The notes under the pieces were generated by a model, which saw nothing but the letters and a program-made list of their open reading frames with translations, ran no database searches and was not told the origin of the DNA. From NCBI GenBank assembly GCA_017520505.1, contig JAFXFN010000006.1, positions 104,091 through 168,090 of the forward strand: DNA of 64,000 bases. Reading direction: 5' to 3'. Positions within the stretch are counted from its first letter, which is position 1. Each line of letters opens with the position of its first letter. The position numbers and the translations under genes were made by a program. The stretch is from Clostridia bacterium. GTDB taxonomy: Bacteria > Bacillota > Clostridia > Oscillospirales > CAG-272. Positions 842 through 22,913 of the stretch are shown here, piece by piece.

Positions 842-890
842 AAAAAACGCATTTATTTATATGTGATAATTAAAAGCCTTGGAGATTTTA

Positions 891-1475
891 ATGAACTTAG
901 GAATACAATTCTTTCTTAACAGCGCATTACTCGGCATAGGGCTTGCAATGGACGCCTTTTCCGTTTCACTTGCAAACGGATTGAACGAGGTGAAAATGCG
1001 TCCTCGCAAAATGTGTGCCATAGCAGGTGTTTTTGCGTTTTTTCAGTATTTAATGCCTATGCTCGGCTGGGTTTGTGTGCATACGATAGCTGAACATTTT
1101 AAATCATTCGAAAAGTTTATCCCGTGGATAGCACTCGTTTTGCTTCTGTTTATAGGCGGAAAAATGGTCCTTGAGGGAATGAGGGTAAAAAAAGACGATG
1201 AAGAAGAAGCATCCGTAGGATTTTTTGCATTGTTGGTTCAAGGAATTGCCACGTCTATCGATGCTCTGTCGGTAGGCTTTACAATTTCGGAGTACGGCAT
1301 TTATGAAGCCCTTATATGCAGTGCTGTAATTGCCGCCGTCACATTCGCCATTTGCATCGCAGGTGTTGCCATCGGCAAACGCTTCGGTACGGCAATATCG
1401 GGAAAAGCATCAGTTTTAGGCGGAGCAATACTGATATTTATAGGAATTGAGATCTTTGTAACAGGCATTATATAA
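891..1475 (+). CDS. mntP: Manganese efflux pump, MntP family
   Basis: The polytopic membrane protein carries the GIGLAMDAFSVSLANG and ATSIDALSVG motifs typical of MntP/YebN. I prefer ATG 891 (GGAG at 880-883) over the track start at 879. Confidence 0.8.
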   Translation: MNLGIQFFLNSALLGIGLAMDAFSVSLANGLNEVKMRPRKMCAIAGVFAFFQYLMPMLGWVCVHTIAEHFKSFEKFIPWIALVLLLFIGGKMVLEGMRVKKDDEEEASVGFFALLVQGIATSIDALSVGFTISEYGIYEALICSAVIAAVTFAICIAGVAIGKRFGTAISGKASVLGGAILIFIGIEIFVTGII

Positions 1476-1540: not shown

Positions 1541-1801
1541 TTAAATGATTTCAAGTGTACGAAGCTTTTCTAAAAATTCTTCCGTATCCTTCGTTGCTTC
1601 TTCCTCTGTCGTGTCGTATTCTTCCAAAATACGCTTCACTATATCATCTGTCGTTTCGACATCCAGCAAAATATCCCAGATGAAGTTACCAAGCTCGTTA
1701 AGTACAAAAAGTCCCTTTGAATCATAAACCGTCTTTCCTACAGGAACAAGTATTGCCTCACCTGCAAATTCTCTTTTTATAAGCTCTTTTTTTATATTCA
1801 T
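1541..1801 (-). CDS. PqqD-family peptide-binding chaperone (RiPP recognition element), 86 aa
   Basis: MNIKKELIKREFAGEAILVPVG...VLNELGNFIWDILLD..TTDDIVKRILEEYD..EEEATKDTEEFLEKL matches the PqqD pattern. Its ATG overlaps the stop of the upstream radical SAM gene by 1 nt (TAATG). The track's 15-aa N-terminal extension is rejected. Confidence 0.75.
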   Translation of the reverse strand: MNIKKELIKREFAGEAILVPVGKTVYDSKGLFVLNELGNFIWDILLDVETTDDIVKRILEEYDTTEEEATKDTEEFLEKLRTLEII

Positions 1802-2937
1802 TATTCGATAACCTCTTTCTTTGATTTGGAAACATACGCATCCCACATCTGTGATATCGTTTCATCAACCTGCTCACAAACATAGGTAGGAACACGGTCA
1901 AATGCACCTGTTTCGGTATAACAAACTGCAGCGCATGAGAAGCATGCATTCTTTTTGGGGCAAGAAGCACATTTTGAAGGCAAGCGTATTTTTTTAACCT
2001 CCGTGTTTACATACTCCCAAGCTTTTTCAAAGCCAACCTCAAGCGGATAAGCCACGGGCTTCGGCATCATTCCGCAGGGATACATTTTTCCGTCCCAAGT
2101 AAGCCACAATGAAGATTTGCCCGCTCTGCATCCAACACCCTCGCTGATGTCGCCAAGACATTCATCTCTTTCAATATCGGCAAATTCCCTCATACTCTTT
2201 GCACGCATTTCAAATTCTTCGTCAGAAAAACGAAGCAAGTCCCATCTGACCGTATATTCAGCCGCTTCCTTAGGTGTAAGTCTTGCATTTTCTCCGAATT
2301 TTTCGCCGTTTATTCTTATCGGCGGATACATATAGCTGACAGCCTTTGCAACAACGCCTATTTCACTTGCAATGTTGAATATCTTTTCTGTATCCTGCTT
2401 GTTATAAGGAGTGATTGACACATTCAGACTCACGTCAACTCCTGCAGCTTTCAGTGCCTTGATATTCTCAAGCACCTTTTCGTACATCGGCGTACCGCAC
2501 ATATTTTTGTACGTTTCAGCACAACCGCCATACAAGGATATATTAATTCTGAATGGGGGATCTTCAAGCAGCTTTCTGCGTATCTCGCCGTCAATAAGCG
2601 AGCCGTTGCTGTTTATGGAAATATAAAATCCCATCTTTTTCATCGCTGAATATATCTCAAAAAAGTCTTCTCTCAGAAAAGGCTCACCGCCCGTCAAAAG
2701 CGCAAATATCGTGCCCTTTTCACGTGCCTGACGTGCAATATCTATCCATTGTTCTGTTGTGAGTTCCCTTTTTCTTGCTTCAGCGTTCTTTCCGCATTGA
2801 TGCACATAGCACATAGGACAGTCAAAATTGCATCTTGATGTCAATTCAAATGTAGCACCCACAGGCAGTCCCAATTTCCCCGCTTTATTATGCAGGTACG
2901 TGACTATTCTGGGTTCTTCGCTCCTTTTTCTTACCAT
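1801..2937 (-). CDS. Radical SAM enzyme with a C-terminal SPASM auxiliary-cluster domain (peptide maturase type)
   Basis: CNFDCPMC is the CxxxCxxC radical SAM motif. The C-terminus has CRAGKSSLWLTWDGKMYPCG and CASCPKKNACFSCAAVC, a SPASM Cys pattern. The gene is adjacent to and translationally coupled with the PqqD gene. Confidence 0.85.
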   Translation of the reverse strand: MVRKRSEEPRIVTYLHNKAGKLGLPVGATFELTSRCNFDCPMCYVHQCGKNAEARKRELTTEQWIDIARQAREKGTIFALLTGGEPFLREDFFEIYSAMKKMGFYISINSNGSLIDGEIRRKLLEDPPFRINISLYGGCAETYKNMCGTPMYEKVLENIKALKAAGVDVSLNVSITPYNKQDTEKIFNIASEIGVVAKAVSYMYPPIRINGEKFGENARLTPKEAAEYTVRWDLLRFSDEEFEMRAKSMREFADIERDECLGDISEGVGCRAGKSSLWLTWDGKMYPCGMMPKPVAYPLEVGFEKAWEYVNTEVKKIRLPSKCASCPKKNACFSCAAVCYTETGAFDRVPTYVCEQVDETISQMWDAYVSKSKKEVIE

Positions 2938-2946
2938 AATATTTCC

Positions 2947-3813
2947 TCAAATTTTCAGCTTATTAAATTCATTTTCAAGCGTTTCAACGGCTGTTTCATC
3001 GGGTAGACACCCAAGATGAAAAACAGGAACTTGAGCTGATACGGAAGAAACTGTTTTTATACAAGATTCCATATCTGATTTATTCCAGACGTCCGCCGTA
3101 CAACCCTCCCACAGCTTGCGGAAGGCAGTTATACCTTTTAATCTTACCGCTGTATTTTCTTTTGCTTGCGCAAGGCACACTATTGCTTTTATGGGATAGC
3201 TCTCGTTTTTGCAAACTCCCGAGCTTCCTGCAAACGGCACGCCGTATGCCCAAAAAACACCGTTTTTGTTCACAATCGCCGCACGGTCGCCGTTTATAAG
3301 CTCAGCACCTCTGTTTTCGCACCAAAGTCTTGCCTGCGTGGACTTACCTACCCCCGAAGGAGCAGTAAACAAAACAGCTTCATCACCGTATCTTATATAC
3401 GATGCGTGAAGAATAAAGCTCTCGTTTTCTGCCATTATGTGTTCGATTCCAAGACAATTAAGTATCGCACGTGCGCCGATACGCTTGAAATTTCCTTTGA
3501 ATACCGTTTGCACGCAAAGCTCACGCCCGCGTCGGTACATCCTCATATCGGCTGATCTGTATTCATCGGAAAGATCTCCAGAATAGCGTATTTCGCCGTC
3601 AGGTACACTATATACCATTCTGTCAGACGAGGTAAAAATACATTCGCCGACAGGCTCAGAAAGCTCGTCAGCTTCTTCAAATATTACAGTATAATCAGGA
3701 TCTGACGGCGGTACTGCATATTCGTTCAACAACGCACTTTCCGCATTCATTATTTCATCATCACCGATTATTTTAAACGTAATATCCGCTATACGATAAT
3801 AAAGAACTGTCAT
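2947..3813 (-). CDS. HprK-related P-loop protein (HPr kinase C-terminal-like domain), 288 aa
   Basis: LHASYIRYGDEAVLFTAPSGVGKSTQARLWCENRGAELINGDRA resembles the HprK C-terminal Walker-A region (G.SG.GKS. ... ..DD). The N-terminal half is unassigned. Confidence 0.5.
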   Translation of the reverse strand: MTVLYYRIADITFKIIGDDEIMNAESALLNEYAVPPSDPDYTVIFEEADELSEPVGECIFTSSDRMVYSVPDGEIRYSGDLSDEYRSADMRMYRRGRELCVQTVFKGNFKRIGARAILNCLGIEHIMAENESFILHASYIRYGDEAVLFTAPSGVGKSTQARLWCENRGAELINGDRAAIVNKNGVFWAYGVPFAGSSGVCKNESYPIKAIVCLAQAKENTAVRLKGITAFRKLWEGCTADVWNKSDMESCIKTVSSVSAQVPVFHLGCLPDETAVETLENEFNKLKI

Positions 3814-3814
3814 A

Positions 3815-4504
3815 TCATTTCACAATATTAACGGAAACTATCTTACTTTCAGACGGAGAAAAATGTCCTGCATTTGTCTGCTTCAACTCTCCGGCTTTCA
3901 AACCGTCCTTGATAGTTATCCTATACGTTATTCCGCCGTAAAACATATCTTGTGCATAATTTTTGAAGTAAATTACGACGTCTCCGACAATATCATCATC
4001 GGATATATTTTTTATATTTGCAACGCCGTTTACACCCGAAACCTGAATTACCTTTTCCATATTATCCATCGGTGTTTTGAAAAACACCTCGTTTTCCAAA
4101 AGATACGCATCAGGCTTTACATCTCTTGATATTGCACGCTTTTTTTCAAGCAGCAATGCCGACTGCCCTGTAGGTAGATTTGTAACGGTGAATTCGGCAG
4201 TATAATCTTCGTATTTTAAGTATATCTCTGCATATTGCAGATCTTTTTCATTTGTGTTCAATACAACTATTGATAAAACGTCATCAACCTTATCTCCGCT
4301 TCCGTCTTCCATATATACGCCATTGTAGCTTCCGACCAAGGTTATTTTGAGTCCGTCATCCAAGTTGATATAGTGGCTTGTATCGACGGGAGTCTTTGAG
4401 AATATATCCGTGCACTGTGTAAGAACAAGAACACAAGATATAACAGCGGCAACAGCTATTGCCGATATAATAATAATTTTCTTTTTGTTTTGTTTTATTC
4501 GCAT
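3815..4504 (-). CDS. Membrane-anchored protein of unknown function, 229 aa
   Basis: A basic N-terminus precedes a single TM helix (KKKIIIISAIAVAAVISCVLVLT), followed by a domain of about 190 aa outside the membrane. AAGGGA RBS; stop is 1 nt from the start of the next gene. Confidence 0.5.
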   Translation of the reverse strand: MRIKQNKKKIIIISAIAVAAVISCVLVLTQCTDIFSKTPVDTSHYINLDDGLKITLVGSYNGVYMEDGSGDKVDDVLSIVVLNTNEKDLQYAEIYLKYEDYTAEFTVTNLPTGQSALLLEKKRAISRDVKPDAYLLENEVFFKTPMDNMEKVIQVSGVNGVANIKNISDDDIVGDVVIYFKNYAQDMFYGGITYRITIKDGLKAGELKQTNAGHFSPSESKIVSVNIVK

Positions 4505-4520
4505 AATAACGATCCCTTAA

Positions 4521-4554
4521 AAAAGGGTGCGGTGTGATCACCGCACCCTTTTTT
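4521..4554 (-). terminator. Strong intrinsic terminator or attenuator between the peptide gene and the maturase genes
   Basis: GGGTGCGGTG (4525-4534) pairs with CACCGCACCC (4539-4548) around a 4-nt loop, and six T follow on the minus strand. Only about 14 nt separate it from the next RBS, which leaves no room for a promoter. Confidence 0.7.
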
Positions 4555-4559
4555 GCTTA

Positions 4560-4805
4560 TTATGATTTAAATACGTTGTTAAAGTCAGATGGATTGTGAT
4601 AACAAATTCCATCGTATTCAGGAGCGCCATCTTCAGTGGATAAATCACAACCCATTATGGTGTTTGTAAACAAAGTCAATCCGGGAATAAAGTCACAGCC
4701 GCATATTCCTCTGTCTGCATTTGCGTGAACTTCACATGAAGCAATATTTGTGCTGAGTGAAAAATTTTCAAATACAACATCGGGTTTTGTATATACTTTT
4801 TTCAT
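4560..4805 (-). CDS. 81-aa Cys-containing small protein; candidate RiPP precursor peptide
   Basis: MKKVYTKPDVVFENFSLSTNIAS is a leader-like stretch, followed by CEVHANADRGICGCDF...MGCDL...DGICYHNPSDFNNVFKS. It has five Cys, no signal peptide and no TM helix. GGAG SD lies 9 nt upstream of ATG 4805. An alternative in-frame ATG at 4826 overlaps the stop of the upstream gene. Confidence 0.55.
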   Translation of the reverse strand: MKKVYTKPDVVFENFSLSTNIASCEVHANADRGICGCDFIPGLTLFTNTIMGCDLSTEDGAPEYDGICYHNPSDFNNVFKS

Positions 4806-4825
4806 CTGTCTGTTCTCCCTTCCCA

Positions 4826-7800
4826 TTATTTACCGAGCAAGCCGCCAAAGAATCCGTCGAATACTCCTCCGATTGAGAAAGCCGGTGCTTTGGTAACTCT
4901 TACGGTTGTCGAAACTGTTCTGCTTTCAACGTCATTTGCGCTGTAAGCATTTGCGCTTATCTGTGCCATTCCCTTGTCTTCAAGTGCAAGTGTTACTTTC
5001 CAGATACGCTGACCGTTTGCCTTGTTTTCAGTATACTTTGTAAACGTTTGACCGTTAACAACAACGTATTCCGCTTCGGAATTTGTTGTAACAGTTACTG
5101 TGAATTTCTGTCCTGCCTTAACGGAGGGCTTCATTGACTTAACGCTGTGGATCTCAGGTGCCTGTGTAGCATTAAGATAATCAACTGCTGCCTGTGCTGT
5201 CTTTGCGTTCATATAAACTGCATTGACTGTCTGAACCTGTGCGTCTACAGTAGCAGTCTTCGTAAGCTTCAGATTTGTTACGGAAATGATACCGTTTCCG
5301 TCAAGATTCTGAAGAACTACCGTGTTAGCCTTGTTATCTGCGAGTATATCATCAAGAGCATAGTAAAGATCCGTTGCGGTTGTAATATTCAAAGTCTTAT
5401 CCAAACCGTTTGTAACGTTTTTGATCTTGAGCGTGCCTGTACCCTTAGCTAACTTTGCAGCGAGCTGTACAGAAGCATAACCGTTTTTATCAACCGTAAA
5501 TGCAACTGCGTTGCCCTTTGCAAGGTAAACTTCGTTGTTAGGACCGAAATCCTTGTATTCGTTGAGTGTGTATGTGTTCTTTATGCTGTCGGAAGTATTG
5601 TCGATATACACAGCACCGTCAACGTTAGAGCCGTCAGCCGCAAAGCCCTTTACATCGCTGATAAGGATATTTCTGAGCTCCTTGAATGTAGGCATATATT
5701 CGCCGTCTGCGATATATGCATTCTTGATGTCTTCATCATTTGCACCGCCGTTTGCGGGATCGTAAATTCTGATAGCATCAAGATAGAAGTCATACTTACC
5801 TTCTCTTGTTGCATTGGCTTTATTGTTGGGAAGTCTGCTTCCGCCGTACTGACCGTGATCGAATATCCAGTTGTACGAAGCTGTAATTACTACCTTGTAC
5901 TTACCGTAAGTGTCAGTGCTCCACTTGATAACGGGAACCTGGTAAAGTCCGTCTTCTGTATCGGATTCTGCGGGAACCCACTTTTCTGTATAGAGAGGCT
6001 TACCGTCTTCTATTATCTGATTGCCGTCTCTGTCAAGTACGGGAACCTTAGCATACTTATAGCCGTAGTATGTGTCTACAACTGTACTCTTTACAGCATT
6101 TATCTCAGGTGCTGTCGCATCAAGGCTCGCATACGGGAATACCTGAACTGCAATTGTACCTGTCTTGTTTGTTGTATAGCTTATAACGTCGAAGCCTTTA
6201 CCGACAAAAGTAAATGTTGCTGTAGCATATTTACCTGTAGAGGAAGCAATTCTACCGTTTTCATCATACTTATCGGTTCTTTCAACTGTTACCTTCTGTG
6301 CTGAACCGAATGAATATTTTGAAGAATCAACGTATGCGCCGTCATTGCCGTATACGTTTGCGATGGTCTCGCCAACTCTGTCATCTCTCTGAACGTCGTC
6401 CTTTTCGGTTCCGACTGTTGTCCAGCTGTTAGCTATAACCTCGCCTTCTTCCGAATAGTTGTTAACTGTAAATGATACGAAATCATCTTCAAAGTAGATA
6501 AGTGTTGCGGGGATAACCGTAAGGTTACCGTAATATTTACCGTTGGGCATTTCAGAACCGCTGTACTGTGCACCGTATGTAACAGAATCAACATCTGTCA
6601 TCTGCATTTCGTCGAGCTGATAACGGATCTCGTTATCCACACAGCTGAATTTACCGAATGCACCGTTGAGTGTTTTGTCTGAAGCAACAAAGCCGTCGGG
6701 TGTGTCGGATGTAAGGTCGAAGTATGAGGGAGCATCAACTTTGGGAGCATAACCTGTAATTGTTGCGTTTTCAACATCGTCCTTGAAATCGTCATTTGCC
6801 AATACATCAACATCAACGGGAATACCGTAGTCTATAACTACCGTATCATCAACGCAAACCTTGGGAACAAGAGCGAACCAAACCTTTGTTTGTCTGTAGT
6901 TTGCATCTGAATTATCGTATGTATTGCCTGTTGTAAGTAACGTACCGGATTCAACGTAAGTTGTTAAAGGCTTATTGGCAGATTTCTCTATTGTCCAGTC
7001 ACCTGTAGCGGCAGACTTGGAATGTGCAAGAATCTTATATGCAGATGCATCATCGTAAAGCTGATAAGCATCAGGAATCTGACCTTCGCCGTCACCGTCA
7101 ACAATGACATTCTTCTGGTTGAGTCTGAACTGCTTTGTTACATCTCCAAGACCGCCTATCTTAAGTGCCTTGTCGAATGTTGTAACGTTACCGTTTGCAT
7201 CGATAGGCTCACCTCTGCCGTTTACAAGGTAGTAGCTGTATGTTACCTCTGCATCTTCCCAAGGAAGCTGAGGCTTAGGAGCAGTTATGGAACAAGCATT
7301 ACCGATGTAGTTCTTATATTTAAGAACCGCGTATTCGTTTGTGAGGAACTCTTGATCAGCGGGGCTTACTTCACCCTCCATCGAGCCTTCAAGATAAACG
7401 TCGTAGTGAAGCTCATATCTTGACTGAGGAATATCACCGACGAGCCAAGCGAATGTTTCAGAGGGAAGCTCATAATCCACCTTGCCATCGGAGTTAGAGT
7501 CTATCATTACCGATTTATTCTTATTGGTATTATACTTAAACGTGGAAGCATCGATTATACCGTCTTCGCCAAGGATATTAACAGATGCACCCTTTACGGA
7601 GCTGTATGCCTCTGTACCGTCTGGATTGAACGTAACTTTCTCGATGAGTGTGCCGGCTTCGTAGCCTTTTTTAACTGTACCTACCATCTCTTCCGTAACG
7701 TGTACGTTATCAATGATAGTACCTACTTCATCAAGTCTGTATGTGATGTACTCAAACAATTCAACAGCAGGTGCGGGATCAAGTGTTATAGGACCTCTCG

Positions 7801-10800
7801 GACCTGCAACAGTTGATGCCATCTGAAGATCGAACGCTTCACCGAGCTTATCTTCAAACACGGCGCCTGATGCTGCACGTATCTTCATAGCAACTTCATT
7901 AAATACGTCGTTGATCTGACCTGATCTTGCAACATCGTAGAAGTGGCCTGATTGTTCGTCACCGGAAGAAATTCTGCGGAGAACTCCGACCGCCGTATCT
8001 CTCGAAATAGCGTGATCGGCAGCCATACCGAAGCCGATAACGAATACCTCAGCGCCGAGGCCGTTAACCCATTCAACATAGTTATTTGCAGAGTTGCCGT
8101 TGGGATTGATTATCTTATATCTGCTGTCAGTATCACCCTTGATAGCCTCAGCCATCCAGTGCTTACCTGCGCTGTTTGCAAATTCGTTATATCTTGCTGT
8201 ATTCGAAGGTCTTGATGCTGCGGGAATGGCAGAAAGATTACCGTTAAGATAATTATCCCATGTCTGATATCCAACAATGCCAGTCTCAGGGTCATCCTTG
8301 TCTCTTATTTCCGAACCGCCGCCGACATAGTTATACTGCCATGTACAGCCGTCAGACATAAATATCAGATAAGGATTACGCTTTGTACCTGCCTGTGCAT
8401 TAAGCTTCTGCTTACCTGCAAGTGTTTCGTATGCAAGATGCAAGCCCTGGTCATAGTTTGTACCGGAACCGGAGTATGCCATACCGAAGCTATCTGCGAT
8501 TTCATCGATCTTTTCATCTGTAAGATCGCTTGAGTGAATAAATCTGTTTTCGATCGAAGGCATTGCAGCCAAAGATTCTTTAGGTGTAAGGAAGTGTGCT
8601 GTATCTGCCTGGTTATGTGTTGTAGCAAGAGGATGCGATTCCCCATTCATCTTCTTGATGAACATATCGCCGTCGATAAGCGTATATCCGTCAAACGTAA
8701 GTATGGAAACGGAAATATCGGACTTATAACCGTCAATCGTTTCAGCAAACTTTTTGAGCATCGTTTTGATCGATGCAACCATCTCGTTTCTACGCGCTTT
8801 TGAGTTGTTAGGCATAGGATCCGAGTTCGGGTCAGCGGAATAAGCCATTGAACCCGAGTTATCAAGAACAAGCACAACGTCAGCACCGCTGGCATCGGGA
8901 ATACCCGTCAGTGTAAGCTGTACTTCCGTAAGACCGGTTGCAAGATAATCATATTCCTCATTTAATCCCTTTTTAATTTCAACAGAACCGGGGGCGGGAT
9001 ATGTGGGGTAGTCATTTTCGGGACGCTTCTGCTCAACTGTAAGCTTAAAGCTCGAGCTGATAGCAACTCCCTGATATGTTACCTTTACATTACTGTATAC
9101 TTTATCGCTGTCTGTTGCTGTCTTCGTCTTTACATTGTCATCGTTATGAGTAAGCATATCAAGCGTTACGGGAATATTTGTAACGTGCGATACACCGTAA
9201 GCGTCAGTTACCGTCATGACAAGGAAAACGCCTGTGGGAGAATCTGCGCCCGTAGCACCGTAAGATACTGTTCCTGAATTCTTTGTAAGATAAACAGTTG
9301 CATTTGCATATTCACTTGTACGTGCGTAATAATATACTCTGTCCTGAGGTTGCGGCTCTCTGAGCTCGTTTATATTCTGGTTTGAAGGCTTGTAGCCTGC
9401 AGCGTTACCGTCTGCCTGTTCAATACGCAAACCGAAGTTATTGATCATATAGTTGTAGTACATCGTACGCCACTTATGATTCTGCTGTTCAATACCATTG
9501 TCTGTCGTTACCTTGGCACCGGGATTATAGACAGCAATACCTGTTTTTTCATTTCTGTCATTCCAGATAGCCTGCCAGCCGTCAGAAGCACCGACAGTCA
9601 ATGTTGCGCCTTGACCGAGATCATCGGTACCGTTAAAACGAAGATATCTGTCTGCCTGAGCCGTTCTGTTGAAGGCCTCGAAAATCCAACATTTAGCGTT
9701 GGGAAGATTAACATGGCCTGCTGCGTGAGATATCCATATTGACTGCCACGGAGCAGCATCGATTACCAACTGTCTTTCGCCGTCAACGAATATTTCATAC
9801 GCGAAAACTTCCTGTGTTGAAACGTTTCTTCCGTCTTCAGTTTTAAGAAGTCTTACATATCCGGGATTCTGGCTTTCAGCGATATGTATATATCCACCGT
9901 CAATAAATAAATTGTTCTGGTCGGGATCTGCAAGAACAAAGAATGATGAATTCTTGCTCACCTCATCATAATTATTGGCAACAAGTTCCTTTACAGCTTT
10001 AACCACAAGTGTAAAGTTATCGGCAAGCTGAACACCGTTGTAGCTTACCTTGACGTTATTATACGTTCCTGCCGTTGTAAGATCAGCACCCGAAAGCATA
10101 TCCGTTGTAACGGGAACACGGGTAAGCTTGCCGTCAACGTAAAGGTGGATGTATGCGCCTGTAGGTGCAAACTTGCCTGTATTTACAGCAACTGTACCCT
10201 TGTTTGAGTAAAGATAGCCCTTGATCTCAGGGATGTCTTTTGAGCCTACTTTTTCGTACAGCTGTGCCATCGTTTTAGCAGAACCCTTAGCTACCATATT
10301 AAAATTCGTGTACTGTTTGTTGTCCTGAGCTGTAAAAACACCATAACTGATATAACCGGCATTTTTTCCGTCAACAGTTACAACAGTCGGGGGATAAGAT
10401 GATGTATATATCGTTTTCAAACCCGCAAGGTCAATATTGTCATTGGCAATAATCCACTTTGAAGTACGTCCCTCGCTCTTATCCAAAGCAAGTGAGAAGT
10501 ATCCGGAATGATATCCGCCTGAACCACCGTTAGGATGTTGGGCAAGATAGCCTTTGTGTGTATTACCGTTGTTGTCTTTTGAAGTTGTAACAAGGTAATA
10601 TGCATTACTTCCGGCTGATTCAAACTTCCACTCGCCGAATTCAGCAGATGAAAAAGTATTTGTTACGTACTTACCCGGATCAAGTGAGGTTGTTTGTACC
10701 GGTATTTCAAAAACCTTTAATCCGTTGAGTGTTTGCAGATATCGGCCGTCGCCTCTTTGAGCGCCGCCGAGCGCAGAGGCTTCGCCGGGAACGTCCGTAC

Positions 10801-11035
10801 TGACGATCATATACGTTTTGCTCGTACTGATGTCAGCAGCTGTGTAATTTTCTACAAGCTTGTAGACTGTCTTCGTTTCGGCTTTTTGAATCAAGATCAA
10901 TTCAGGCTCGGCAAGACTTTCAATTCCCTCATTGATAACGCTTTCAGCGAGCGTAACAACGGGAGAAAGAAGCATTGACAAACACAAAACGACCGATAGG
11001 ATTCGTCTTAAGCCAAACTTTTTCTTTGATTCCAT
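4826..11035 (-). CDS. Giant secreted surface protein (2069 aa) with a von Willebrand factor A domain and Ig-like repeats
   Basis: Signal peptide MESKKKFGLRRILSVVLCLSMLLSPVVTLA. VWA MIDAS motif DVVLVLDNSGSM, later FMSDG. Repeated beta-rich modules (..NVKVSYNGVQLADNFTLVV.. and ..NVKVTYQGVAISSSFKLTV..). AGGAG RBS. I saw no LPXTG motif. Confidence 0.7.
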   Translation of the reverse strand: MESKKKFGLRRILSVVLCLSMLLSPVVTLAESVINEGIESLAEPELILIQKAETKTVYKLVENYTAADISTSKTYMIVSTDVPGEASALGGAQRGDGRYLQTLNGLKVFEIPVQTTSLDPGKYVTNTFSSAEFGEWKFESAGSNAYYLVTTSKDNNGNTHKGYLAQHPNGGSGGYHSGYFSLALDKSEGRTSKWIIANDNIDLAGLKTIYTSSYPPTVVTVDGKNAGYISYGVFTAQDNKQYTNFNMVAKGSAKTMAQLYEKVGSKDIPEIKGYLYSNKGTVAVNTGKFAPTGAYIHLYVDGKLTRVPVTTDMLSGADLTTAGTYNNVKVSYNGVQLADNFTLVVKAVKELVANNYDEVSKNSSFFVLADPDQNNLFIDGGYIHIAESQNPGYVRLLKTEDGRNVSTQEVFAYEIFVDGERQLVIDAAPWQSIWISHAAGHVNLPNAKCWIFEAFNRTAQADRYLRFNGTDDLGQGATLTVGASDGWQAIWNDRNEKTGIAVYNPGAKVTTDNGIEQQNHKWRTMYYNYMINNFGLRIEQADGNAAGYKPSNQNINELREPQPQDRVYYYARTSEYANATVYLTKNSGTVSYGATGADSPTGVFLVMTVTDAYGVSHVTNIPVTLDMLTHNDDNVKTKTATDSDKVYSNVKVTYQGVAISSSFKLTVEQKRPENDYPTYPAPGSVEIKKGLNEEYDYLATGLTEVQLTLTGIPDASGADVVLVLDNSGSMAYSADPNSDPMPNNSKARRNEMVASIKTMLKKFAETIDGYKSDISVSILTFDGYTLIDGDMFIKKMNGESHPLATTHNQADTAHFLTPKESLAAMPSIENRFIHSSDLTDEKIDEIADSFGMAYSGSGTNYDQGLHLAYETLAGKQKLNAQAGTKRNPYLIFMSDGCTWQYNYVGGGSEIRDKDDPETGIVGYQTWDNYLNGNLSAIPAASRPSNTARYNEFANSAGKHWMAEAIKGDTDSRYKIINPNGNSANNYVEWVNGLGAEVFVIGFGMAADHAISRDTAVGVLRRISSGDEQSGHFYDVARSGQINDVFNEVAMKIRAASGAVFEDKLGEAFDLQMASTVAGPRGPITLDPAPAVELFEYITYRLDEVGTIIDNVHVTEEMVGTVKKGYEAGTLIEKVTFNPDGTEAYSSVKGASVNILGEDGIIDASTFKYNTNKNKSVMIDSNSDGKVDYELPSETFAWLVGDIPQSRYELHYDVYLEGSMEGEVSPADQEFLTNEYAVLKYKNYIGNACSITAPKPQLPWEDAEVTYSYYLVNGRGEPIDANGNVTTFDKALKIGGLGDVTKQFRLNQKNVIVDGDGEGQIPDAYQLYDDASAYKILAHSKSAATGDWTIEKSANKPLTTYVESGTLLTTGNTYDNSDANYRQTKVWFALVPKVCVDDTVVIDYGIPVDVDVLANDDFKDDVENATITGYAPKVDAPSYFDLTSDTPDGFVASDKTLNGAFGKFSCVDNEIRYQLDEMQMTDVDSVTYGAQYSGSEMPNGKYYGNLTVIPATLIYFEDDFVSFTVNNYSEEGEVIANSWTTVGTEKDDVQRDDRVGETIANVYGNDGAYVDSSKYSFGSAQKVTVERTDKYDENGRIASSTGKYATATFTFVGKGFDVISYTTNKTGTIAVQVFPYASLDATAPEINAVKSTVVDTYYGYKYAKVPVLDRDGNQIIEDGKPLYTEKWVPAESDTEDGLYQVPVIKWSTDTYGKYKVVITASYNWIFDHGQYGGSRLPNNKANATREGKYDFYLDAIRIYDPANGGANDEDIKNAYIADGEYMPTFKELRNILISDVKGFAADGSNVDGAVYIDNTSDSIKNTYTLNEYKDFGPNNEVYLAKGNAVAFTVDKNGYASVQLAAKLAKGTGTLKIKNVTNGLDKTLNITTATDLYYALDDILADNKANTVVLQNLDGNGIISVTNLKLTKTATVDAQVQTVNAVYMNAKTAQAAVDYLNATQAPEIHSVKSMKPSVKAGQKFTVTVTTNSEAEYVVVNGQTFTKYTENKANGQRIWKVTLALEDKGMAQISANAYSANDVESRTVSTTVRVTKAPAFSIGGVFDGFFGGLLGK

Positions 11036-11312: not shown

Positions 11313-12542
11313 ATGATGATAGTAAAGCAATATATCAAGGATTTTGAAAAGCTCGGCTTCGGCATTTTTGTACACTTTGGTGTGTACAGTGCCGTCGGTA
11401 AGGGTGAATGGTCTAAAGCCGTTCTTCACATTTCAAACGAAGAATACGCAGAATATGCAAAAAATTTCATTCCTGCGGAAGACTGGGCAAAAAAGCTGGT
11501 TGCGCACGCAAAAACAGCAGGCGCAAGATACATAACGATAACCACACGACACCACGACGGATTTTCTCTTTACGACACGTGCGGACTTAACGATTACGAC
11601 ACGGTGCATTACTGCGGCCGTGATCTTATCCGTGAATTCGTTGATGCCTGCAACGAGGGCGGTATAGTTCCCTTTTTCTATCACACTCTTATGGACTGGT
11701 ATATGCCGTCATACGAAGCGGATTTCAACGAATATCTCGCTTATTTAAGAAAGAGTGTTGAGCTTCTTTGCAGAAACTACGGCAAGATAGGCGGTATCTG
11801 GTTCGACGGTATGTGGCACAAGCCGAACAGCGATTGGCAGGAGGACGAGCTTTACGGAACGATAAGAAAATATCAGCCCGAGGCAATGATCATCAACAAC
11901 ACGGGACTTTCCGCAAGGGGTGCGCTCGGTCACATTGAGCTTGACAGCGTAACGTTTGAGCGCGGAAGACCTCAGAAGATAAACACGGAAGAATCTCCGA
12001 AATACATTGCAAGCGAGATGTGCCAGGTAATGAACAGCCATTGGGGATATGCCGAAAACGACCTTTCATACATTTCCCCCGCAGATGTAATTAAAGATCT
12101 GACAGTTTGCAAAAAATGCGGAAGCAACTTTTTGCTGAACGTCGGACCGCTTCCGAACGGATACCTTCGCACCATTGACAGCGCAATTCTTGAAATAGTC
12201 GGAAAATGGGTAAGCGTAAACCGTGAAATAATGGATGCTGTTCCCTGCGACGTAAAAATCGAAAACAAGGATGATGATTTTATCCTGCAAACTGATGAAG
12301 CATACTATATTCTCTGCAACAATCTTCCTATGGTGGCAGATCCAAACGTAGCCCTGGCAAACGGAAGCGGAAATTACGAATTACGCTTCAAAACAGACAA
12401 GCGCATAAAGAGCATACATTGGCTCGACAACGGCGAAGAATTGAAGTTCACGCAAGACGGAAGTGACACCCTCGTATACACAACACCGTTTTCATACGGC
12501 AACCACCTCGTTGTGCGTGCGGCTAAAGCAATATTCGAATAA
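11313..12542 (+). CDS. Alpha-L-fucosidase (GH29 family)
   Basis: FGIFVHFGVYSAVGKGEW, TTRHHDGFSLYDT and GGIWFDGMW are characteristic GH29 blocks. No signal peptide. Confidence 0.75.
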   Translation: MMIVKQYIKDFEKLGFGIFVHFGVYSAVGKGEWSKAVLHISNEEYAEYAKNFIPAEDWAKKLVAHAKTAGARYITITTRHHDGFSLYDTCGLNDYDTVHYCGRDLIREFVDACNEGGIVPFFYHTLMDWYMPSYEADFNEYLAYLRKSVELLCRNYGKIGGIWFDGMWHKPNSDWQEDELYGTIRKYQPEAMIINNTGLSARGALGHIELDSVTFERGRPQKINTEESPKYIASEMCQVMNSHWGYAENDLSYISPADVIKDLTVCKKCGSNFLLNVGPLPNGYLRTIDSAILEIVGKWVSVNREIMDAVPCDVKIENKDDDFILQTDEAYYILCNNLPMVADPNVALANGSGNYELRFKTDKRIKSIHWLDNGEELKFTQDGSDTLVYTTPFSYGNHLVVRAAKAIFE

Positions 12543-15904: not shown

Positions 15905-17950
15905 TTAATCGATAGGTCTGTATGCAAATCTGAACTGCATATTGCTGTATGACAAAGGCTCATACGAGGGCTGTGTAGACTGAAGTCTTTTTACTGAGCC
16001 TGCGTCATATCTGTATGTATTTGCGCCGTACGTACCTGCGGAAATAAACGTGTGGCAAGGATAGTTCTTATAGTTTGCAGGAACAGCAAGGTTATTACTG
16101 TAACCAACAAATATTATATCGCCGGGGCGTACATCAGCAAGATTCGTATGCTTTTGGAAGCCGAGGCTTATCAAAAGGTTTTCCAAAGGACCGTAAAGCG
16201 TGAAGCCCTTTGTCGCTGGCTGTCTGTCTCTTGCAAAGCCTGCATCGTAAAGTGTCCAGCCCACGAATCTGTCGCAAGATACGATCTTTTCACTCTTATC
16301 AAGTGCAGGGTTAACGCTCGCGTCACCGTATCTGTATCCGTTATCTCTTACATAGTCGGCGTTTATCTTTGCGTGGTGGAGGATTCTTGCCGCCGCCATA
16401 GTGGGACAAGGATTGTACACAACGTTTCCGCCCTGACGTACCACCTGGCCATAATGCGCCTTAACGTTTGCTCTTGCTTCTTCAATGGATTCATACTGAC
16501 CGTAGACTGTTGTTCCGTAAGGACAGGTTACAGCATATTCGGGAAGCTTCAATCTGTAATCATCAACAATAAACTGCTGTGCAGGTGAAAGATTGCTTGT
16601 GTAAAGGTGAACATTCGTGTTCTCAGCATCGGAAGCACCGTAAACGTCAACAACAAAGTTATCACCGAGTGCTGACATAAGCGTTATCTTGCCGAGGCGC
16701 ATATAGGCATACCAGCGCTGTGCTGTTGTGCCGTTGGAATCGTACACCTGAATGTTTGCACCATCAGCCATTTCCGCCGCAAATACGTCAAGAACCTTGC
16801 CTGTCTGCACGTTTTTAATGATATACGTACCGTCTGTCTGCATCAGGAACTGCCAATACTGTCCATACGGCTTTATGCATACGTTATTTGAAGAATCGAC
16901 ACTGATATATCCGTTGTTGAATTTGAGCGTTGTATAGAACATAGGCTGACTCAGAGGACCGACATTATCAAAATATGCATTCGTATCCAGATCAACCTCA
17001 CCAATATCGTTTAAGTAGAATATCTGTGAATCCGAGTAGCTTACACCGTATATGTTTACCGTTGCGTCATTTTCCGTTGACGAGGAAGAAACCTCAAGAA
17101 CTCTGTCATATCCGCATTTTGAACGGATTATATAACCGCCGTCGTACTCAATAAGATACCACCGCTGATTTTCCGCACCCGTATTTTTGTACGTACCGAC
17201 AAGGTTACCAAGATGCGTAGAAGCATACGAGAGATCCATAACTGTGCCCGTACCAACATTTTCAATCACATACGAGCCATCATCCTGAATTATGAAGTGC
17301 CATATCTGATTTGCCGACGTCGTTTTATCAAAAGCAACAACCGTATCTTTCGCAAGACTCACGCCAAGTGAGTTATCGGTATAAGAAAGATCTATCGTTG
17401 CATAAAAGCTTTCGCCGAGATTTTTTGTGGGTTTGTCCGCAATATCAAGCTCAGGGGTGTCGGTCATTATTGCATTTGAAAAGCCCGAAATATCATCCTC
17501 TGTGAACGAGCCGTCCTTGTTGAAATCGAGAACAGATTCATAATAAAAGGTATTATTCGCTATGAGGTGCTTTTTTGCACGCACAAGGTCTTTACCGGTT
17601 ACGTACGTATCGCCGTCAACGTCACCGTCTACAAGCAATGTATACGCAGTACCGTCTGCCATTACAAGCTTGTATCCCGTTCCGACTCTTGAATAATCAC
17701 CGACGGTATAACCGTGGAATCTGCTGACGTGTCCGCTTCCCGGAAAGCTTGACATAAGCTCCTTTACGGTAGTACCAAGCGGAATATTCTTAATATATTC
17801 GCCATCAATATATGCATCGCCAGAAGACGTCGCAACCGTTTGCGGAAAAAGCGAGGACATAAATTCCGTTTTCGCAAAGGCGCACGGCAATAAAACGGCA
17901 AGAAGCACGCAAATCACCGTAATTTTTAACAAAAGTTTTTTCACAAGCAT
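15905..17950 (-). CDS. Secreted dockerin / 2x ricin-type lectin / papain-fold (NlpC/P60-like) hydrolase, paralog 1 (681 aa)
   Basis: Signal peptide MLVKKLLLKITVICVLLAVLLPCAFA (GGAG RBS; track N-terminal extension rejected). Two EF-hand-like dockerin loops, DVDGDTYVTGKD and DFNKDGSFTEDD. QxW-type trefoil motifs (NQIWHF, NQRWYL, SQIFYL; GQYWQF, AQRWYA, AQQFIV). C-terminal SCDRFVGW (Cys) and PCHTFIS (His) resemble an NlpC/P60 or Amidase_5 catalytic pair. Confidence 0.65.
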   Translation of the reverse strand: MLVKKLLLKITVICVLLAVLLPCAFAKTEFMSSLFPQTVATSSGDAYIDGEYIKNIPLGTTVKELMSSFPGSGHVSRFHGYTVGDYSRVGTGYKLVMADGTAYTLLVDGDVDGDTYVTGKDLVRAKKHLIANNTFYYESVLDFNKDGSFTEDDISGFSNAIMTDTPELDIADKPTKNLGESFYATIDLSYTDNSLGVSLAKDTVVAFDKTTSANQIWHFIIQDDGSYVIENVGTGTVMDLSYASTHLGNLVGTYKNTGAENQRWYLIEYDGGYIIRSKCGYDRVLEVSSSSTENDATVNIYGVSYSDSQIFYLNDIGEVDLDTNAYFDNVGPLSQPMFYTTLKFNNGYISVDSSNNVCIKPYGQYWQFLMQTDGTYIIKNVQTGKVLDVFAAEMADGANIQVYDSNGTTAQRWYAYMRLGKITLMSALGDNFVVDVYGASDAENTNVHLYTSNLSPAQQFIVDDYRLKLPEYAVTCPYGTTVYGQYESIEEARANVKAHYGQVVRQGGNVVYNPCPTMAAARILHHAKINADYVRDNGYRYGDASVNPALDKSEKIVSCDRFVGWTLYDAGFARDRQPATKGFTLYGPLENLLISLGFQKHTNLADVRPGDIIFVGYSNNLAVPANYKNYPCHTFISAGTYGANTYRYDAGSVKRLQSTQPSYEPLSYSNMQFRFAYRPID

Positions 17951-18193
17951 ATCTCCTTTCAAATGCTCATAAATACAAAAGACTGATACACCTATTTTCC
18001 CAAGCTGAAAAGTGCTCGTCGCAAAAAACAGATGAACCAACAATTTTATATTACAGTATTATTGTATAAAGAAATAGTAATAAATGATAATTTTCCGTAA
18101 ATTCACAAAAGCTGTGCATAGATATAAAACATCATTATTGATAAGCTTGATACCCTGAATTTTCTTTATCTATAATCACAAGTCTGCTTTTAT

Positions 18194-18229
18194 AAAAAAT
18201 CAGGACATCTTTTGATAAAGATGTCCTGA
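18194..18229 (-). terminator. Intrinsic terminator of paralog 2
   Basis: CAGGACATCTTT/AAAGATGTCCTG stem with a 4-nt loop, and a T-run on the minus strand. Confidence 0.65.
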
Positions 18230-18237
18230 CATATTGA

Positions 18238-20352: not shown

Positions 20353-20548
20353 AGTGTTCACTCCTTTTTTAAAAAACACGAACATAAAAGCTTGCAAACT
20401 CAAAAAGCACATCGATAATTAACGGTGCAAGCTGACACTATAATTCTACAGCATTTTATCAAAAAACGCAACTCAAAAATGATAATTTTTTGTTAATTAT
20501 GCAAAAAACACGCTTGTTTTCAAAACAAATACTATTAAAATTACATAA

Positions 20549-20582
20549 GAAAAAATACACCGCAGCAATTTTGCTGCGGTGT
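20549..20582 (-). terminator. Intrinsic terminator of paralog 3
   Basis: ACACCGCAGCAA/TTGCTGCGGTGT stem followed by a T-run on the minus strand. Confidence 0.6.
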
Positions 20583-20594
20583 AAATATTTGATT

Positions 20595-22691: not shown

Positions 22692-22913
22692 AAGCACACT
22701 CCTTCACATTGATAAAAAAAGAAAACCCGTATCGCCGTAAACATATCATATATAATGCATCAAAGGTATCAATGGCACAGCGCACAAGTATATATTTTAA
22801 TTTTACTGTATCATTATCAATAAAGTAATATAGAAATAATAATTTTTTGTTAATATCAACTAATAAAGTGCTGTTTCTCACTTAATAGTTTTTGTGCATA
22901 TTTAATAATACTG

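Follow-up and report, generated by a model that had tools for sequence, protein, structure and literature searches.

We analyzed a gut Clostridia locus on the minus strand of a 64,000-nucleotide stretch of DNA (hereafter, the window), in which a gene for an 81-aa cysteine protein is found together with genes for a single-pass membrane protein and three likely modifying enzymes, directly behind a giant surface-protein gene. The features of the locus are as follows.

4826-11035, minus strand: giant secreted surface protein (2069 aa) with an N-terminal signal peptide and a VWA domain.
4806-4825, minus strand: 20-nt spacer between the stop codon of the giant gene and the ATG of the peptide gene, carrying only a Shine-Dalgarno sequence (GGGAAGGGAGAA).
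4560-4805, minus strand: 81-aa precursor-like mini-protein with five Cys.
4518-4555, no strand assigned: GC-rich hairpin flanked by an A-run and a T-run, an intrinsic-terminator or attenuator-like element directly after the peptide gene.
3815-4504, minus strand: single-pass membrane protein (229 aa).
2947-3813, minus strand: ScmC-family P-loop protein (288 aa), a probable phosphotransferase with a PEPCK/HPr-kinase-like fold.
1801-2937, minus strand: radical SAM enzyme with a SPASM-type C-terminal domain (378 aa).
1541-1801, minus strand: stand-alone PqqD-family protein (86 aa), a probable RiPP recognition element.
1499-1529, no strand assigned: palindromic hairpin between the convergent PqqD and MntP genes (MntP at 879-1475, plus strand), probably marking the end of the operon.

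All five genes from the peptide to PqqD exist where the sequence-only reading had placed them, and its observation is confirmed, with one correction to the spacing. That reading had described gaps of 0-10 nt or overlapping codons throughout. We found that rSAM and PqqD overlap by 1 nt (TAATG), that the P-loop/rSAM gap is 9 nt, and that the gap between the membrane protein and the P-loop protein is 1 nt, but that the peptide/membrane-protein gap is 55 nt and holds the strong hairpin (dG −21.4 kcal/mol, 10 nt after the stop codon). A comparable hairpin plus T-run follows the peptide stop in 36 of 45 peptide genes, mostly within 7-27 nt. For the small ORF, an in-frame ATG at 4826 would give 88 aa, but the Shine-Dalgarno sequence and the homologues favor 81 aa. 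As the sequence-only reading had stated, no peptidase or exporter gene is in the cassette, and none is conserved beside it in the related loci.

Each protein was next compared with profile and structure databases. The PqqD protein matches PF05402 (E 2.7e-16), and its best NCBIfam hits are lasso-type PqqD chaperones, ScmD, and GeoRSP PqqD, all below cut-off. The radical SAM enzyme matches PF04055 (E 2.5e-26) and contains an invariant CxxxCxxC at C36/C40/C43, as well as eight invariant C-terminal cysteines (C260, C270, C288, C323, C326, C332, C335, and C354) in a SPASM-type pattern, although the Pfam SPASM score itself (18.9 bits, E 0.0019) is below the cut-off of 21.5. The enzyme falls below every NCBIfam equivalog cut-off, and its nearest solved structures are SkfB (1.4e-10) and PqqE (1.3e-9).

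The P-loop protein belongs to Pfam family PF27840 (“ScmC”), an assignment precomputed for this exact protein, and 18 of 21 family members hit NCBIfam ScmC (TIGR04249; best E 2e-11). Its AF2 model (pLDDT 94) was matched by Foldseek to PEPCK at 1e-7 and to HprK/P at 2e-6. In a profile search against the PDB, the invariant H136, G156-K-S-T, and D176-R177 align with the catalytic H, GKS, and DDR motifs of HprK/P. The membrane protein has a Lys-rich N-terminus, a TM helix at about residues 6-35, and two tandem beta-sandwich domains predicted to lie outside the cell (AF2 pLDDT 91), for which Foldseek finds only generic tandem Ig/FnIII-like folds. None of its 68 homologues has a Pfam domain, and the protein travels with the enzyme set rather than with orphan giant+peptide pairs.

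The small ORF has no Pfam or NCBIfam hit. Nevertheless, it is a genuine gene: whether it is conserved had been named beforehand as a point on which the reading could fail, and we found 33 homologues and purifying selection (dN/dS 0.07-0.34). It founds a large, stand-alone, unannotated family of at least 1376 clusters at 50% identity. Conservation is tripartite, with mean top-residue frequencies of 0.71 in the leader, 0.40 in the middle, and 0.68 in the tail. The protein consists of a near-invariant leader-like N-terminus (residues 1-23; MKKxYxKP..F.L), a variable middle with fixed C24, C35, C53, and F46, and a conserved tail C68-Y69-H70-x-P72...F79-x-S81-COOH, in which the C-Y-H motif lies 14 residues from the end. 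Of the 150 best representatives, 124 have four Cys, all 150 have CY, and 140 (about 93%) end in Ser.

To determine whether the arrangement is conserved, which the sequence-only reading had proposed as its own test, we examined related loci from both sides. Homologues of the 81-aa ORF co-occur with the rSAM/PqqD/HprK-like trio, encoded directly downstream, in about 38 of 49 independent genome loci found from the peptide side, and they also do so in 4 of 5 loci sampled from the enzyme side. The order giant-peptide-membrane protein-ScmC-rSAM-PqqD is conserved at 30-90% protein identity, and the arrangement is far beyond chance. There are exceptions. Two loci (L017 and L022; L numbers denote individual related loci) have the giant, peptide, membrane-protein, and ScmC genes but no rSAM or PqqD next to them, whereas one locus (L057) has the membrane-protein, ScmC, rSAM, and PqqD genes with no giant or peptide gene nearby.

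The main point missed by the sequence-only reading is the giant gene. Its product, called “VWA domain-containing protein” by NCBI, carries a VWA domain with a DxSxS MIDAS motif at about residues 719-1055 (31 bits on a segment, against a cut-off of 23.8), a weak GBS104-like tip-pilin Ig hit (E 0.0035), a conserved region at about residues 1400-1930, and a short hydrophobic Gly-rich C-terminal tail. Homologues, which are signal-peptide VWA surface proteins of 1600-3300 aa, sit next to the peptide gene in 48 of 50 clustered loci. The spacer between the two genes is 12-20 nt in 36 of 39 loci and always holds a GGAGG-like motif. The linkage survives rearrangement in L042, L047, and L049, while L048 has the same order but its contig ends before the position of the giant gene. 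In addition, giant+peptide pairs without enzymes, which keep the leader, the Cys pattern, and the tail, occur in the same MAGs as full cassettes (L028 with L001, L034 with L005, L018 with L017, and L026 with L002). This pairing of a small peptide gene with a giant cell-surface adhesin gene has not been described before.

The interpretation of the sequence-only reading, a candidate uncharacterized RiPP system, is partly supported: its central inference holds, but the enzyme trio is not unnamed, the functional unit is larger, and, given the coupling to the giant gene and the lack of a protease or exporter, a free RiPP natural product is not the most likely outcome. The trio, with its PqqE-like rSAM/SPASM enzyme, corresponds to the SynChlorMet (SCM) type, a cassette of ScmC, ScmD (PqqD), and ScmE/ScmF (rSAM/SPASM) defined in silico by TIGR04248-04251. 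However, all NCBIfam scores at this locus are far below the equivalog cut-offs (ScmC, 13.5 against 125; ScmD, 28 against 100; ScmE/F, about 76 against 400), there is one rSAM rather than two, and the hosts are gut Clostridia. No precursor was ever identified for SCM, whereas this locus has a clear precursor candidate, a membrane ectoprotein, and a linked giant adhesin.

Two further systems are related in part. In phosphorylated lasso peptides of the paeninodin/pseudomycoidin type, an HPr-kinase homologue sits with a PqqD-family RRE and phosphorylates the C-terminal Ser of precursors that share little but that Ser (PMC8498205). Here, there is no lasso cyclase, B2 protease, or ABC exporter, an rSAM/SPASM enzyme is present instead, the precursor is twice as long, and phosphorylation is not shown. 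Sactipeptide and ranthipeptide systems (SkfB, PapB, StsB, and SCIFF maturases) share an rSAM/SPASM-type maturase, RRE-based leader recognition, and Cys-containing cores. In comparison with these, our scores are below the equivalog cut-offs (PapB, 67 against 340; StsB, 76 against 625), the core is about 58 aa with a fixed C-terminal tail, a kinase-like enzyme is present, there is no peptidase or exporter, and the peptide gene is obligatorily linked to a giant surface protein.

Our best explanation, which we hold with moderate confidence, is a RiPP-type protein-maturation module tied to a giant surface adhesin. In this view, the giant VWA protein and the 81-aa protein are made from one tightly coupled message that mostly ends at the hairpin after the peptide gene. 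The PqqD protein would bind the leader-like segment (MKKxYxKPxΦxFExFxL) and present the peptide to the radical SAM/SPASM enzyme, which would cross-link its body, most likely through thioether bonds from the four fixed cysteines, with the invariant C-Y-H site as the prime target. The ScmC-family enzyme would then phosphorylate the peptide, most plausibly at the near-invariant C-terminal serine, as HPr-kinase homologues do in lasso-peptide clusters. While gene content, folds, motifs, conservation, and linkage are demonstrated by our analysis, the substrate identity, the cross-link chemistry, the phosphorylation site, export, and the partnership with the giant protein are inferences. No modification has been observed, and physical interaction between the peptide and the giant protein rests on gene linkage only. 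No protease or exporter is conserved, the peptide has no signal peptide, and how it would reach the surface is unexplained. Moreover, four peptides end in ..NSL rather than Ser, and a second ScmC+PqqD cluster in L057 has candidate peptides that do not end in Ser, so that ScmC proteins are not uniformly C-terminal-Ser kinases. Also against this explanation, L017 and L022 have no rSAM or PqqD next to the other genes, the full enzyme set in L057 has no giant or peptide gene nearby, the best NCBIfam hit of the rSAM is the non-peptide enzyme AhbD, although it is far below cut-off, and the Pfam SPASM score is below the gathering threshold.

A less likely possibility is that the enzymology is the same but the product is a free diffusible RiPP, either an antimicrobial or a signal, cleaved and exported by housekeeping or distant genes, with the adhesin gene merely co-transcribed, for example, as a shared regulon for colonization. 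Consistent with this are the classic precursor layout of conserved leader, variable core, and fixed Cys, the terminator after the precursor gene, as in many bacteriocin operons, the presence of several precursors per enzyme set (L012 has three tandem copies), and the similarity of the rSAM to the sactipeptide maturase SkfB. Some rSAM RiPP loci, such as SCIFF, also lack transporters. However, the fixed spacer across lineages with only 30-40% identity and the survival of the linkage through rearrangement are hard to explain by co-regulation alone. Furthermore, every orphan precursor copy brings its own giant gene, the core of about 58 residues with its strictly conserved 14-residue tail looks more like a folded mini-protein, and no protease, exporter, or immunity gene is conserved.

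It is more doubtful that the small protein is an unmodified partner of the giant protein, such as a cytoplasmic chaperone, an assembly factor, or a metal- or disulfide-bonded subunit, with the enzymes acting on something else, for example, the tail of the giant protein or another peptide encoded elsewhere. The giant+peptide pairs without adjacent enzymes, the enzyme set without an adjacent pair, the two loci lacking the rSAM, and the terminator between the peptide and enzyme genes would fit this reading. Against it, most peptide loci carry the enzymes directly downstream, and the N-terminus, the most conserved part of the peptide, resembles the leaders of small ORFs beside another ScmC+PqqD pair (MKNIYENPEMEIVMF.. 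against MKKVYTKPDVVFENF..). In addition, the Cys spacing (x10, x17, x14) is not that of a zinc ribbon, and the giant proteins have no conserved Cys and vary in their C-terminal tails. Finally, the rSAM could be a cofactor or heme-type enzyme (AhbD/NirJ-like) or a sulfatase-maturase-like enzyme with an incidental small ORF; membership in a heme or sulfatase maturase family had been named in advance as a finding that would overturn the reading. The best NCBIfam hits, the non-peptide enzyme AhbD (119 bits) and NirJ2 (101 bits), and the presence of anSME among the PDB hits (8.5e-8) would fit this possibility. It is very unlikely, however, since these scores are far below the family cut-offs of 500, SkfB and PqqE outrank anSME among the PDB hits, no heme, siroheme, or sulfatase genes are nearby, and a stand-alone PqqD and a conserved leader-bearing ORF accompany the rSAM in dozens of genomes.

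A conceptual analogue for the favored reading is the quinohemoprotein amine dehydrogenase gamma subunit, QhpC, a Cys-bearing polypeptide of roughly 80-110 aa with a leader, which is cross-linked by the rSAM/SPASM enzyme QhpD and then serves as a subunit of a larger extracytoplasmic protein rather than as a free natural product. No QhpA/B dehydrogenase subunits, QhpE peptidase, or QhpF exporter are present here, there is no sequence relationship between the peptides, and the partner, inferred from linkage only, is a VWA adhesin-like giant protein. In our proposal, the modified mini-protein would act at the cell surface together with its cognate giant adhesin, with the membrane-anchored two-domain ectoprotein taking part in that step, and one enzyme set could serve several giant+peptide pairs in a genome.

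The ORF list and the sequence show five co-directional genes on the minus strand, preceded immediately upstream, on the same strand, by a very long ORF that the sequence-only reading did not mention:
4826-11035, minus strand, giant VWA domain-containing protein, 2069 aa
4560-4805, minus strand, small Cys-containing ORF (hereafter the peptide), 81 aa
3815-4504, minus strand, membrane protein (TM), 229 aa
2947-3813, minus strand, P-loop protein, 288 aa
1801-2937, minus strand, radical SAM (rSAM) protein, 378 aa
1541-1801, minus strand, PqqD protein, 86 aa

The observation made in the sequence-only reading, namely five such genes in this order, therefore holds. The four downstream genes are tightly packed, with a 1-nt overlap and gaps of 9 nt and 1 nt, whereas the peptide gene is separated from the membrane-protein gene by 55 nt. 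This gap holds a strong GC hairpin flanked by A- and T-runs at 4518-4555. The stop codon of the giant gene lies 20 nt before the peptide ATG, and the spacer contains only a Shine-Dalgarno sequence. At the other end, a perfect 14-bp-stem palindromic hairpin at 1499-1529, probably a bidirectional terminator, lies between the convergent PqqD and MntP (879-1475) genes.

We next carried out the Pfam domain searches that had been put forward as the first check on the cassette. The PqqD protein matches PF05402 with an E value of 2.7e-16, covering all 67 model positions, and thus provides a stand-alone RiPP recognition element (RRE) fold. The rSAM protein matches PF04055 with an E value of 2.5e-26, and the CxxxCxxC cysteines C36/C40/C43 are invariant across 18 homologues down to 36% identity. 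For the C-terminal SPASM domain, the Pfam score of 18.9 bits falls below the cut-off of 21.5, yet eight cysteines (C260, C270, C288, C323, C326, C332, C335, and C354) are invariant in the same homologues and the Gx4C and Cx2Cx5C spacing is present, so that the two lines of evidence do not agree on a SPASM assignment. The rSAM protein reaches no NCBIfam equivalog cut-off, its best hits being AhbD, followed by NirJ2, MoaA, PqqE, GeoRSP, WgkB, StsB, ScmE/F, the mycofactocin maturase, and PapB. The nearest solved structures are the sactipeptide maturase SkfB and PqqE.

The P-loop protein carries the precomputed Pfam family PF27840 (ScmC), whereas a direct hmmscan against a Pfam-A library without that family returned only a spurious AAA_33 hit; annotation of this family thus depends on the Pfam release used. 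Its AlphaFold model is confident (pLDDT 94) and matches PEP carboxykinases (1e-7) and HPr kinase/phosphorylases (2e-6; TM 0.5-0.64 on the target). In addition, a family profile aligns invariant H136, G156-K-S-T, and D176-R177 with the H, GKS, and DDR motifs of L. casei HprK/P. Of 21 relatives, 18 hit NCBIfam ScmC (TIGR04249; best E value 2e-11) and 18 hit HprK-related kinase A, although the window protein itself scores only 13.5 bits against the TIGR04249 cut-off of 125, and the Pfam and NCBIfam results together leave its place as the ScmC component of a SynChlorMet (SCM) cassette undecided. The match to Hpr_kinase_C (PF07475) that was to be looked for was not found, as the window protein gives no Pfam Hpr_kinase hit at E <= 0.1, and only 4 of 21 relatives graze TIGR00679 (best E value 4.8e-4). 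The description "HprK-like" in the sequence-only reading is therefore right at the level of fold and motif, and the Pfam record places the protein more precisely with ScmC.

The 229-aa protein has a Lys-rich N-terminus, one TM helix, and two predicted beta-sandwich domains (pLDDT 91). A Foldseek search of its ectodomain against PDB gave only generic tandem beta-sandwich matches and hence no indication of function. Its 68 homologues have no Pfam domain and have variable acidic/Pro/Thr-rich linkers after the TM helix, which fits an N-in, ectodomain-out topology.

Lack of conservation of the small ORF had been named in advance as grounds for rejecting the proposal, but our results show that it is a real and widespread gene. 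A word-indexed search found 33 homologues of 76-106 aa, and an exhaustive profile search found at least 1376 clusters (50% identity) at E <= 1e-3 and 467 at E <= 1e-10, those listed being 73-111 aa long. The dN/dS among close relatives is 0.07-0.34. Conservation is tripartite: residues 1-23 form a near-invariant, leader-like N-terminus (M1, Y5, P8, F12, E13, F15, I21, A22); the middle is variable and has indels, but C24, C35, F46, and C53 are fixed; and the tail C68-Y69-H70-x-P72...F79-x-S81 is conserved. The mean top-residue frequency is 0.71 for the leader and 0.40 for the middle, as expected for a precursor with a conserved leader and a more variable core. Among the 150 best representatives, 124 have exactly four Cys, all 150 have CY, which in 124 lies exactly 14 residues from the end, and 140 end in Ser, as do 40 of 44 peptides from the loci described below. 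The fifth Cys of the window peptide (C33) is not conserved. Neither Pfam nor NCBIfam has a model for the family, and NCBI names the neighboring genes only "radical SAM protein" and "VWA domain-containing protein". A phage origin was not supported, since the peptide profile finds nothing in viral contigs.

To examine whether the small ORF and the enzyme genes recur together, as had been proposed beforehand, we scanned one genome per species. The scan returned 49 loci (numbered with the prefix L), all from uncultured, mostly gut or rumen Firmicutes (Oscillospiraceae, Faecousia, Lachnospiraceae, Ruminococcus, Blautia, and one Selenomonadaceae). All loci in this study come from MAGs or metagenomes. 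Using tblastn and ORF clustering, we found that about 38 loci carry ScmC-like and rSAM genes directly downstream of the peptide gene, usually together with the TM protein (34 loci) and PqqD, in the window's order; PqqD was missed by tblastn in some loci, possibly because of divergence. No gene family beyond the six is conserved, so there is no protease or transporter. A homologue of the giant protein (1600-3300 aa, usually with a signal peptide) is adjacent wherever the contig allows. This includes the rearranged loci L042, L047, and L049, where the order is PqqD - LuxR-type regulator - TM - NUMOD4 protein - peptide - ScmC - rSAM - giant, the regulator and the NUMOD4 protein being the only extra genes; L048 shows the same order but ends before the giant gene's position.

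Eight loci (L014, L018, L025, L026, L028, L029, L034, and L036) have the peptide gene with no enzyme genes nearby, as judged within 10-kb flanks, and in all but the contig-truncated L014 a giant gene sits upstream. Four of these "orphans" (L018, L026, L028, and L034) come from the same MAGs as full cassettes (L017, L002, L001, and L005, respectively), which implies one enzyme set for several pairs. The orphan peptides that were retrieved keep the leader, the Cys pattern, the CY motif, and the terminal Ser. In the Selenomonadaceae (Negativicutes) bin, three tandem peptide genes lie behind one giant gene (L012:10001-11592); all three products end in ..NSL rather than ..NS, and two lack the CY motif. 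Two loci, L017:6056-9564 and L022:986-5072, have giant-peptide-TM-ScmC followed directly by unrelated genes (a beta-lactamase-family protein; an alpha-amylase with CBM26) with no adjacent rSAM or PqqD, so the ScmC/TM pair can occur without the radical SAM enzyme nearby.

Sampling from the enzyme side with four ScmC-like homologues found the full six-gene set in three cases (L050/51, L052, and L056), while the fourth, L057, has TM-ScmC-rSAM-PqqD with no giant or peptide gene nearby. Contigs carrying the window's own rSAM (L053-L055) also show the full set. The giant-to-peptide spacer is 12-20 nt in 36 of 39 loci and always holds a GGAGG-like motif, and a GC hairpin with a T-run follows the peptide stop codon in 36 of 45 cases, mostly within 7-27 nt, its position but not its sequence being conserved. 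Therefore, the conserved expression unit is [giant]-SD-[peptide]-terminator, and an enzyme set (TM, ScmC, rSAM, PqqD) lies behind it in one copy per genome.

The giant protein has a signal peptide, a VWA domain with a DxSxS motif (DNSGS; 31 bits, above the cut-off, on a segment), and a weak GBS104-like tip-pilin Ig hit (E value 0.0035). It shares with its homologues a region of roughly 500 aa (about 1400-1930) that is rich in invariant aromatic and Gly residues and has no conserved Cys, and a sequence search against PDB gave no hits. No LPXTG is visible in the C-terminal tails of the window protein or the locus homologues, so the features examined do not settle whether it belongs with Gram-positive VWA tip adhesins of the GBS104/RrgA type. 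Instead, the C-termini differ: a dockerin-like repeat in L029, an SLH-like domain in L044, and a short amphipathic ..LFGWLF/..FFGGLLGK tail in most loci, including the window (4829-4890), which suggests various ways of staying on the cell surface. Elsewhere in the window, at 15905-22697 (minus strand) and 11313-12542 (plus strand), there are three paralogous proteins of about 700 aa with ricin-type lectin repeats, two of which also have dockerin I modules, and an alpha-L-fucosidase next to the giant gene. The host looks like a glycan-foraging, cellulosome-style gut Clostridium. These genes are syntenic only in close relatives.

What these data support directly is that a leader-bearing mini-protein family co-evolves with a PqqD RRE, an rSAM/SPASM-type enzyme, and a catalytically intact PEPCK/HprK-like P-loop enzyme. 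The chemistry is inferred from this. By established RiPP logic, PqqD-fold RREs bind leaders and deliver cores to rSAM/SPASM maturases such as PqqE, MftC, SkfB, and PapB, and we therefore infer leader capture by PqqD and radical cross-linking of the core, with the four fixed Cys as the likely donors and the invariant C-Y-H as a probable hot spot. Enzyme-dependent modification of the peptide, including Cys-S to C-alpha, C-beta, or C-gamma thioether bonds, was not measured here. The interpretation of the cassette as an uncharacterised RiPP system is supported only in part.

For the ScmC-like enzyme, there is an experimentally grounded precedent: HPr-kinase homologues in lasso clusters phosphorylate the side-chain OH of the C-terminal Ser of linear precursors that share little beyond that Ser (PMC8498205). 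The near-invariant terminal Ser and the fixed-length tail fit this model, and the combination of an HPr-kinase homologue with a precursor ending in Ser is present at this locus, although phosphorylation was not assayed. There are counter-examples, as four peptides end in ..NSL. Furthermore, a second, different ScmC+PqqD cluster (L057:16400-20852; metagenome contig ERZ28436076 NODE_156), on the same contig as the orphan TM-ScmC-rSAM-PqqD set, has two small ORFs ending in ..NAT and ..GLM. These small ORFs do share the leader style (MKNIYENPEMEIVMF..; MKNIYENPEMEIVMFAAEDVI.. and MKLKYGIAKMEIVPFAAEDVI.. in the two ORFs), which supports the idea that this leader type is read by the PqqD/ScmC pair. 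This second cluster also has a transglutaminase-core protein, a short (243-aa) ScmC protein 27% identical to the window's, a PqqD, an S26-like signal peptidase, and an ABC transporter, but no rSAM, and looks like another uncharacterised RiPP-like class built on the ScmC/PqqD pair.

Three observations point to a physical or functional partnership between each peptide and its giant protein at the cell surface, namely, the near-obligate, translationally coupled linkage of their genes, the way each extra peptide copy brings its own giant gene, and the extracytoplasmic ectoprotein encoded with the enzymes. Multimer modelling of such a partnership was not part of this analysis. The closest analogy is the rSAM-cross-linked gamma subunit of quinohemoprotein amine dehydrogenase. 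Export is the weak point of this view, because the peptide has no signal peptide and no dedicated transporter. We considered several routes and modes of association. The ..IAGC motif resembles a lipobox, but the N-terminus is charged and lacks a hydrophobic h-region, and extra residues often separate G from C, so that a lipoprotein or Sec signal was rejected. Tat hitch-hiking with the giant protein was rejected because the RR in the window signal peptide is not conserved in homologues. The absence of conserved Cys in the conserved region of the giant proteins speaks against an intermolecular disulfide. Read-through or frameshift fusion of the peptide to the giant protein was also rejected, since the frames differ, a second stop follows, and a Shine-Dalgarno sequence lies in the spacer.

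A more far-reaching version of this view is that the 81-aa protein is not a free natural product but a radical-SAM cross-linked, C-terminally phosphorylated mini-subunit, made in fixed proportion to a giant VWA adhesin and needed for its function at the cell surface. It could act as a phosphoserine/carboxylate ligand for the VWA metal site, or as an anchor or cap handled by the membrane ectoprotein, and one enzyme set would service several adhesin+mini-subunit pairs per genome. We regard this version as possible but doubtful; if true, it would be a RiPP-type maturation pathway dedicated to surface adhesins of gut Clostridia, with an unknown export route. Among the alternatives, a free secreted RiPP with incidental co-transcription is unlikely but survives best, and an unmodified partner protein, with the enzymes acting elsewhere, is less likely still. 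A cofactor-type rSAM is very unlikely: membership of a non-peptide family had been named as a condition that would overturn the proposal, but AhbD scores 119 against a cut-off of 500 and NirJ2 101 against 500, and no heme genes are nearby.

When compared with characterised and predicted systems, the enzyme trio matches the in silico SynChlorMet cassette type and the ScmC Pfam family, but it fails every NCBIfam equivalog cut-off (ScmD 28 against 100, ScmE 76 against 400, ScmF 75 against 400) and has one rSAM gene rather than two. It is not a lasso system, because neither a lasso cyclase (Asn-synthetase-like) nor a B2 transglutaminase-like protease occurs in the cassette or among the conserved neighbors. 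It is not a member of any characterised sactipeptide or ranthipeptide maturase family, as PapB scores 67 against 340 and StsB 76 against 625, and SkfB matches only at an E value of 1.4e-10 over the rSAM core. Nor is it an AhbD, NirJ, PqqE, or mycofactocin system. RODEO and antiSMASH were not applied to the locus. Full-text literature searches on HPr kinases with radical SAM and PqqD, SynChlorMet/GeoRSP, PF27840 and ScmC, rSAM RiPPs with von Willebrand adhesins, rSAM/SPASM enzymes with kinases in the gut microbiome, paeninodin, and ranthipeptides, which did not extend to Haft & Basu 2011, found no description of this system, and the RRE-Finder paper does not mention kinases. RRE-guided rSAM/SPASM peptide maturation with a ScmC-type kinase is thus the already known element, whereas the large unannotated precursor family and the near-obligate coupling to giant VWA adhesins are new. 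If the mini-protein proves to be an adhesin subunit, the system would be close to categorically new.

Altogether, this work defines a large peptide family that carries no annotation and is found mainly in gut Clostridia, and it supplies a concrete, testable candidate substrate for ScmC-type (HPr-kinase-like) + PqqD + rSAM/SPASM cassettes, for which the accessible literature described no substrate or product. Even on the conservative reading, a new rSAM RiPP class, it is a sizeable new genome-mining target in the gut microbiome. The near-obligate, 12-20-nt coupling of the peptide gene to giant VWA surface proteins suggests that RiPP-style chemistry may be used to build or regulate adhesins in abundant gut anaerobes, which would raise a new question about how leader-bearing, signal-less mini-proteins leave the cell and would link two fields, peptide natural products and host/matrix adhesion.
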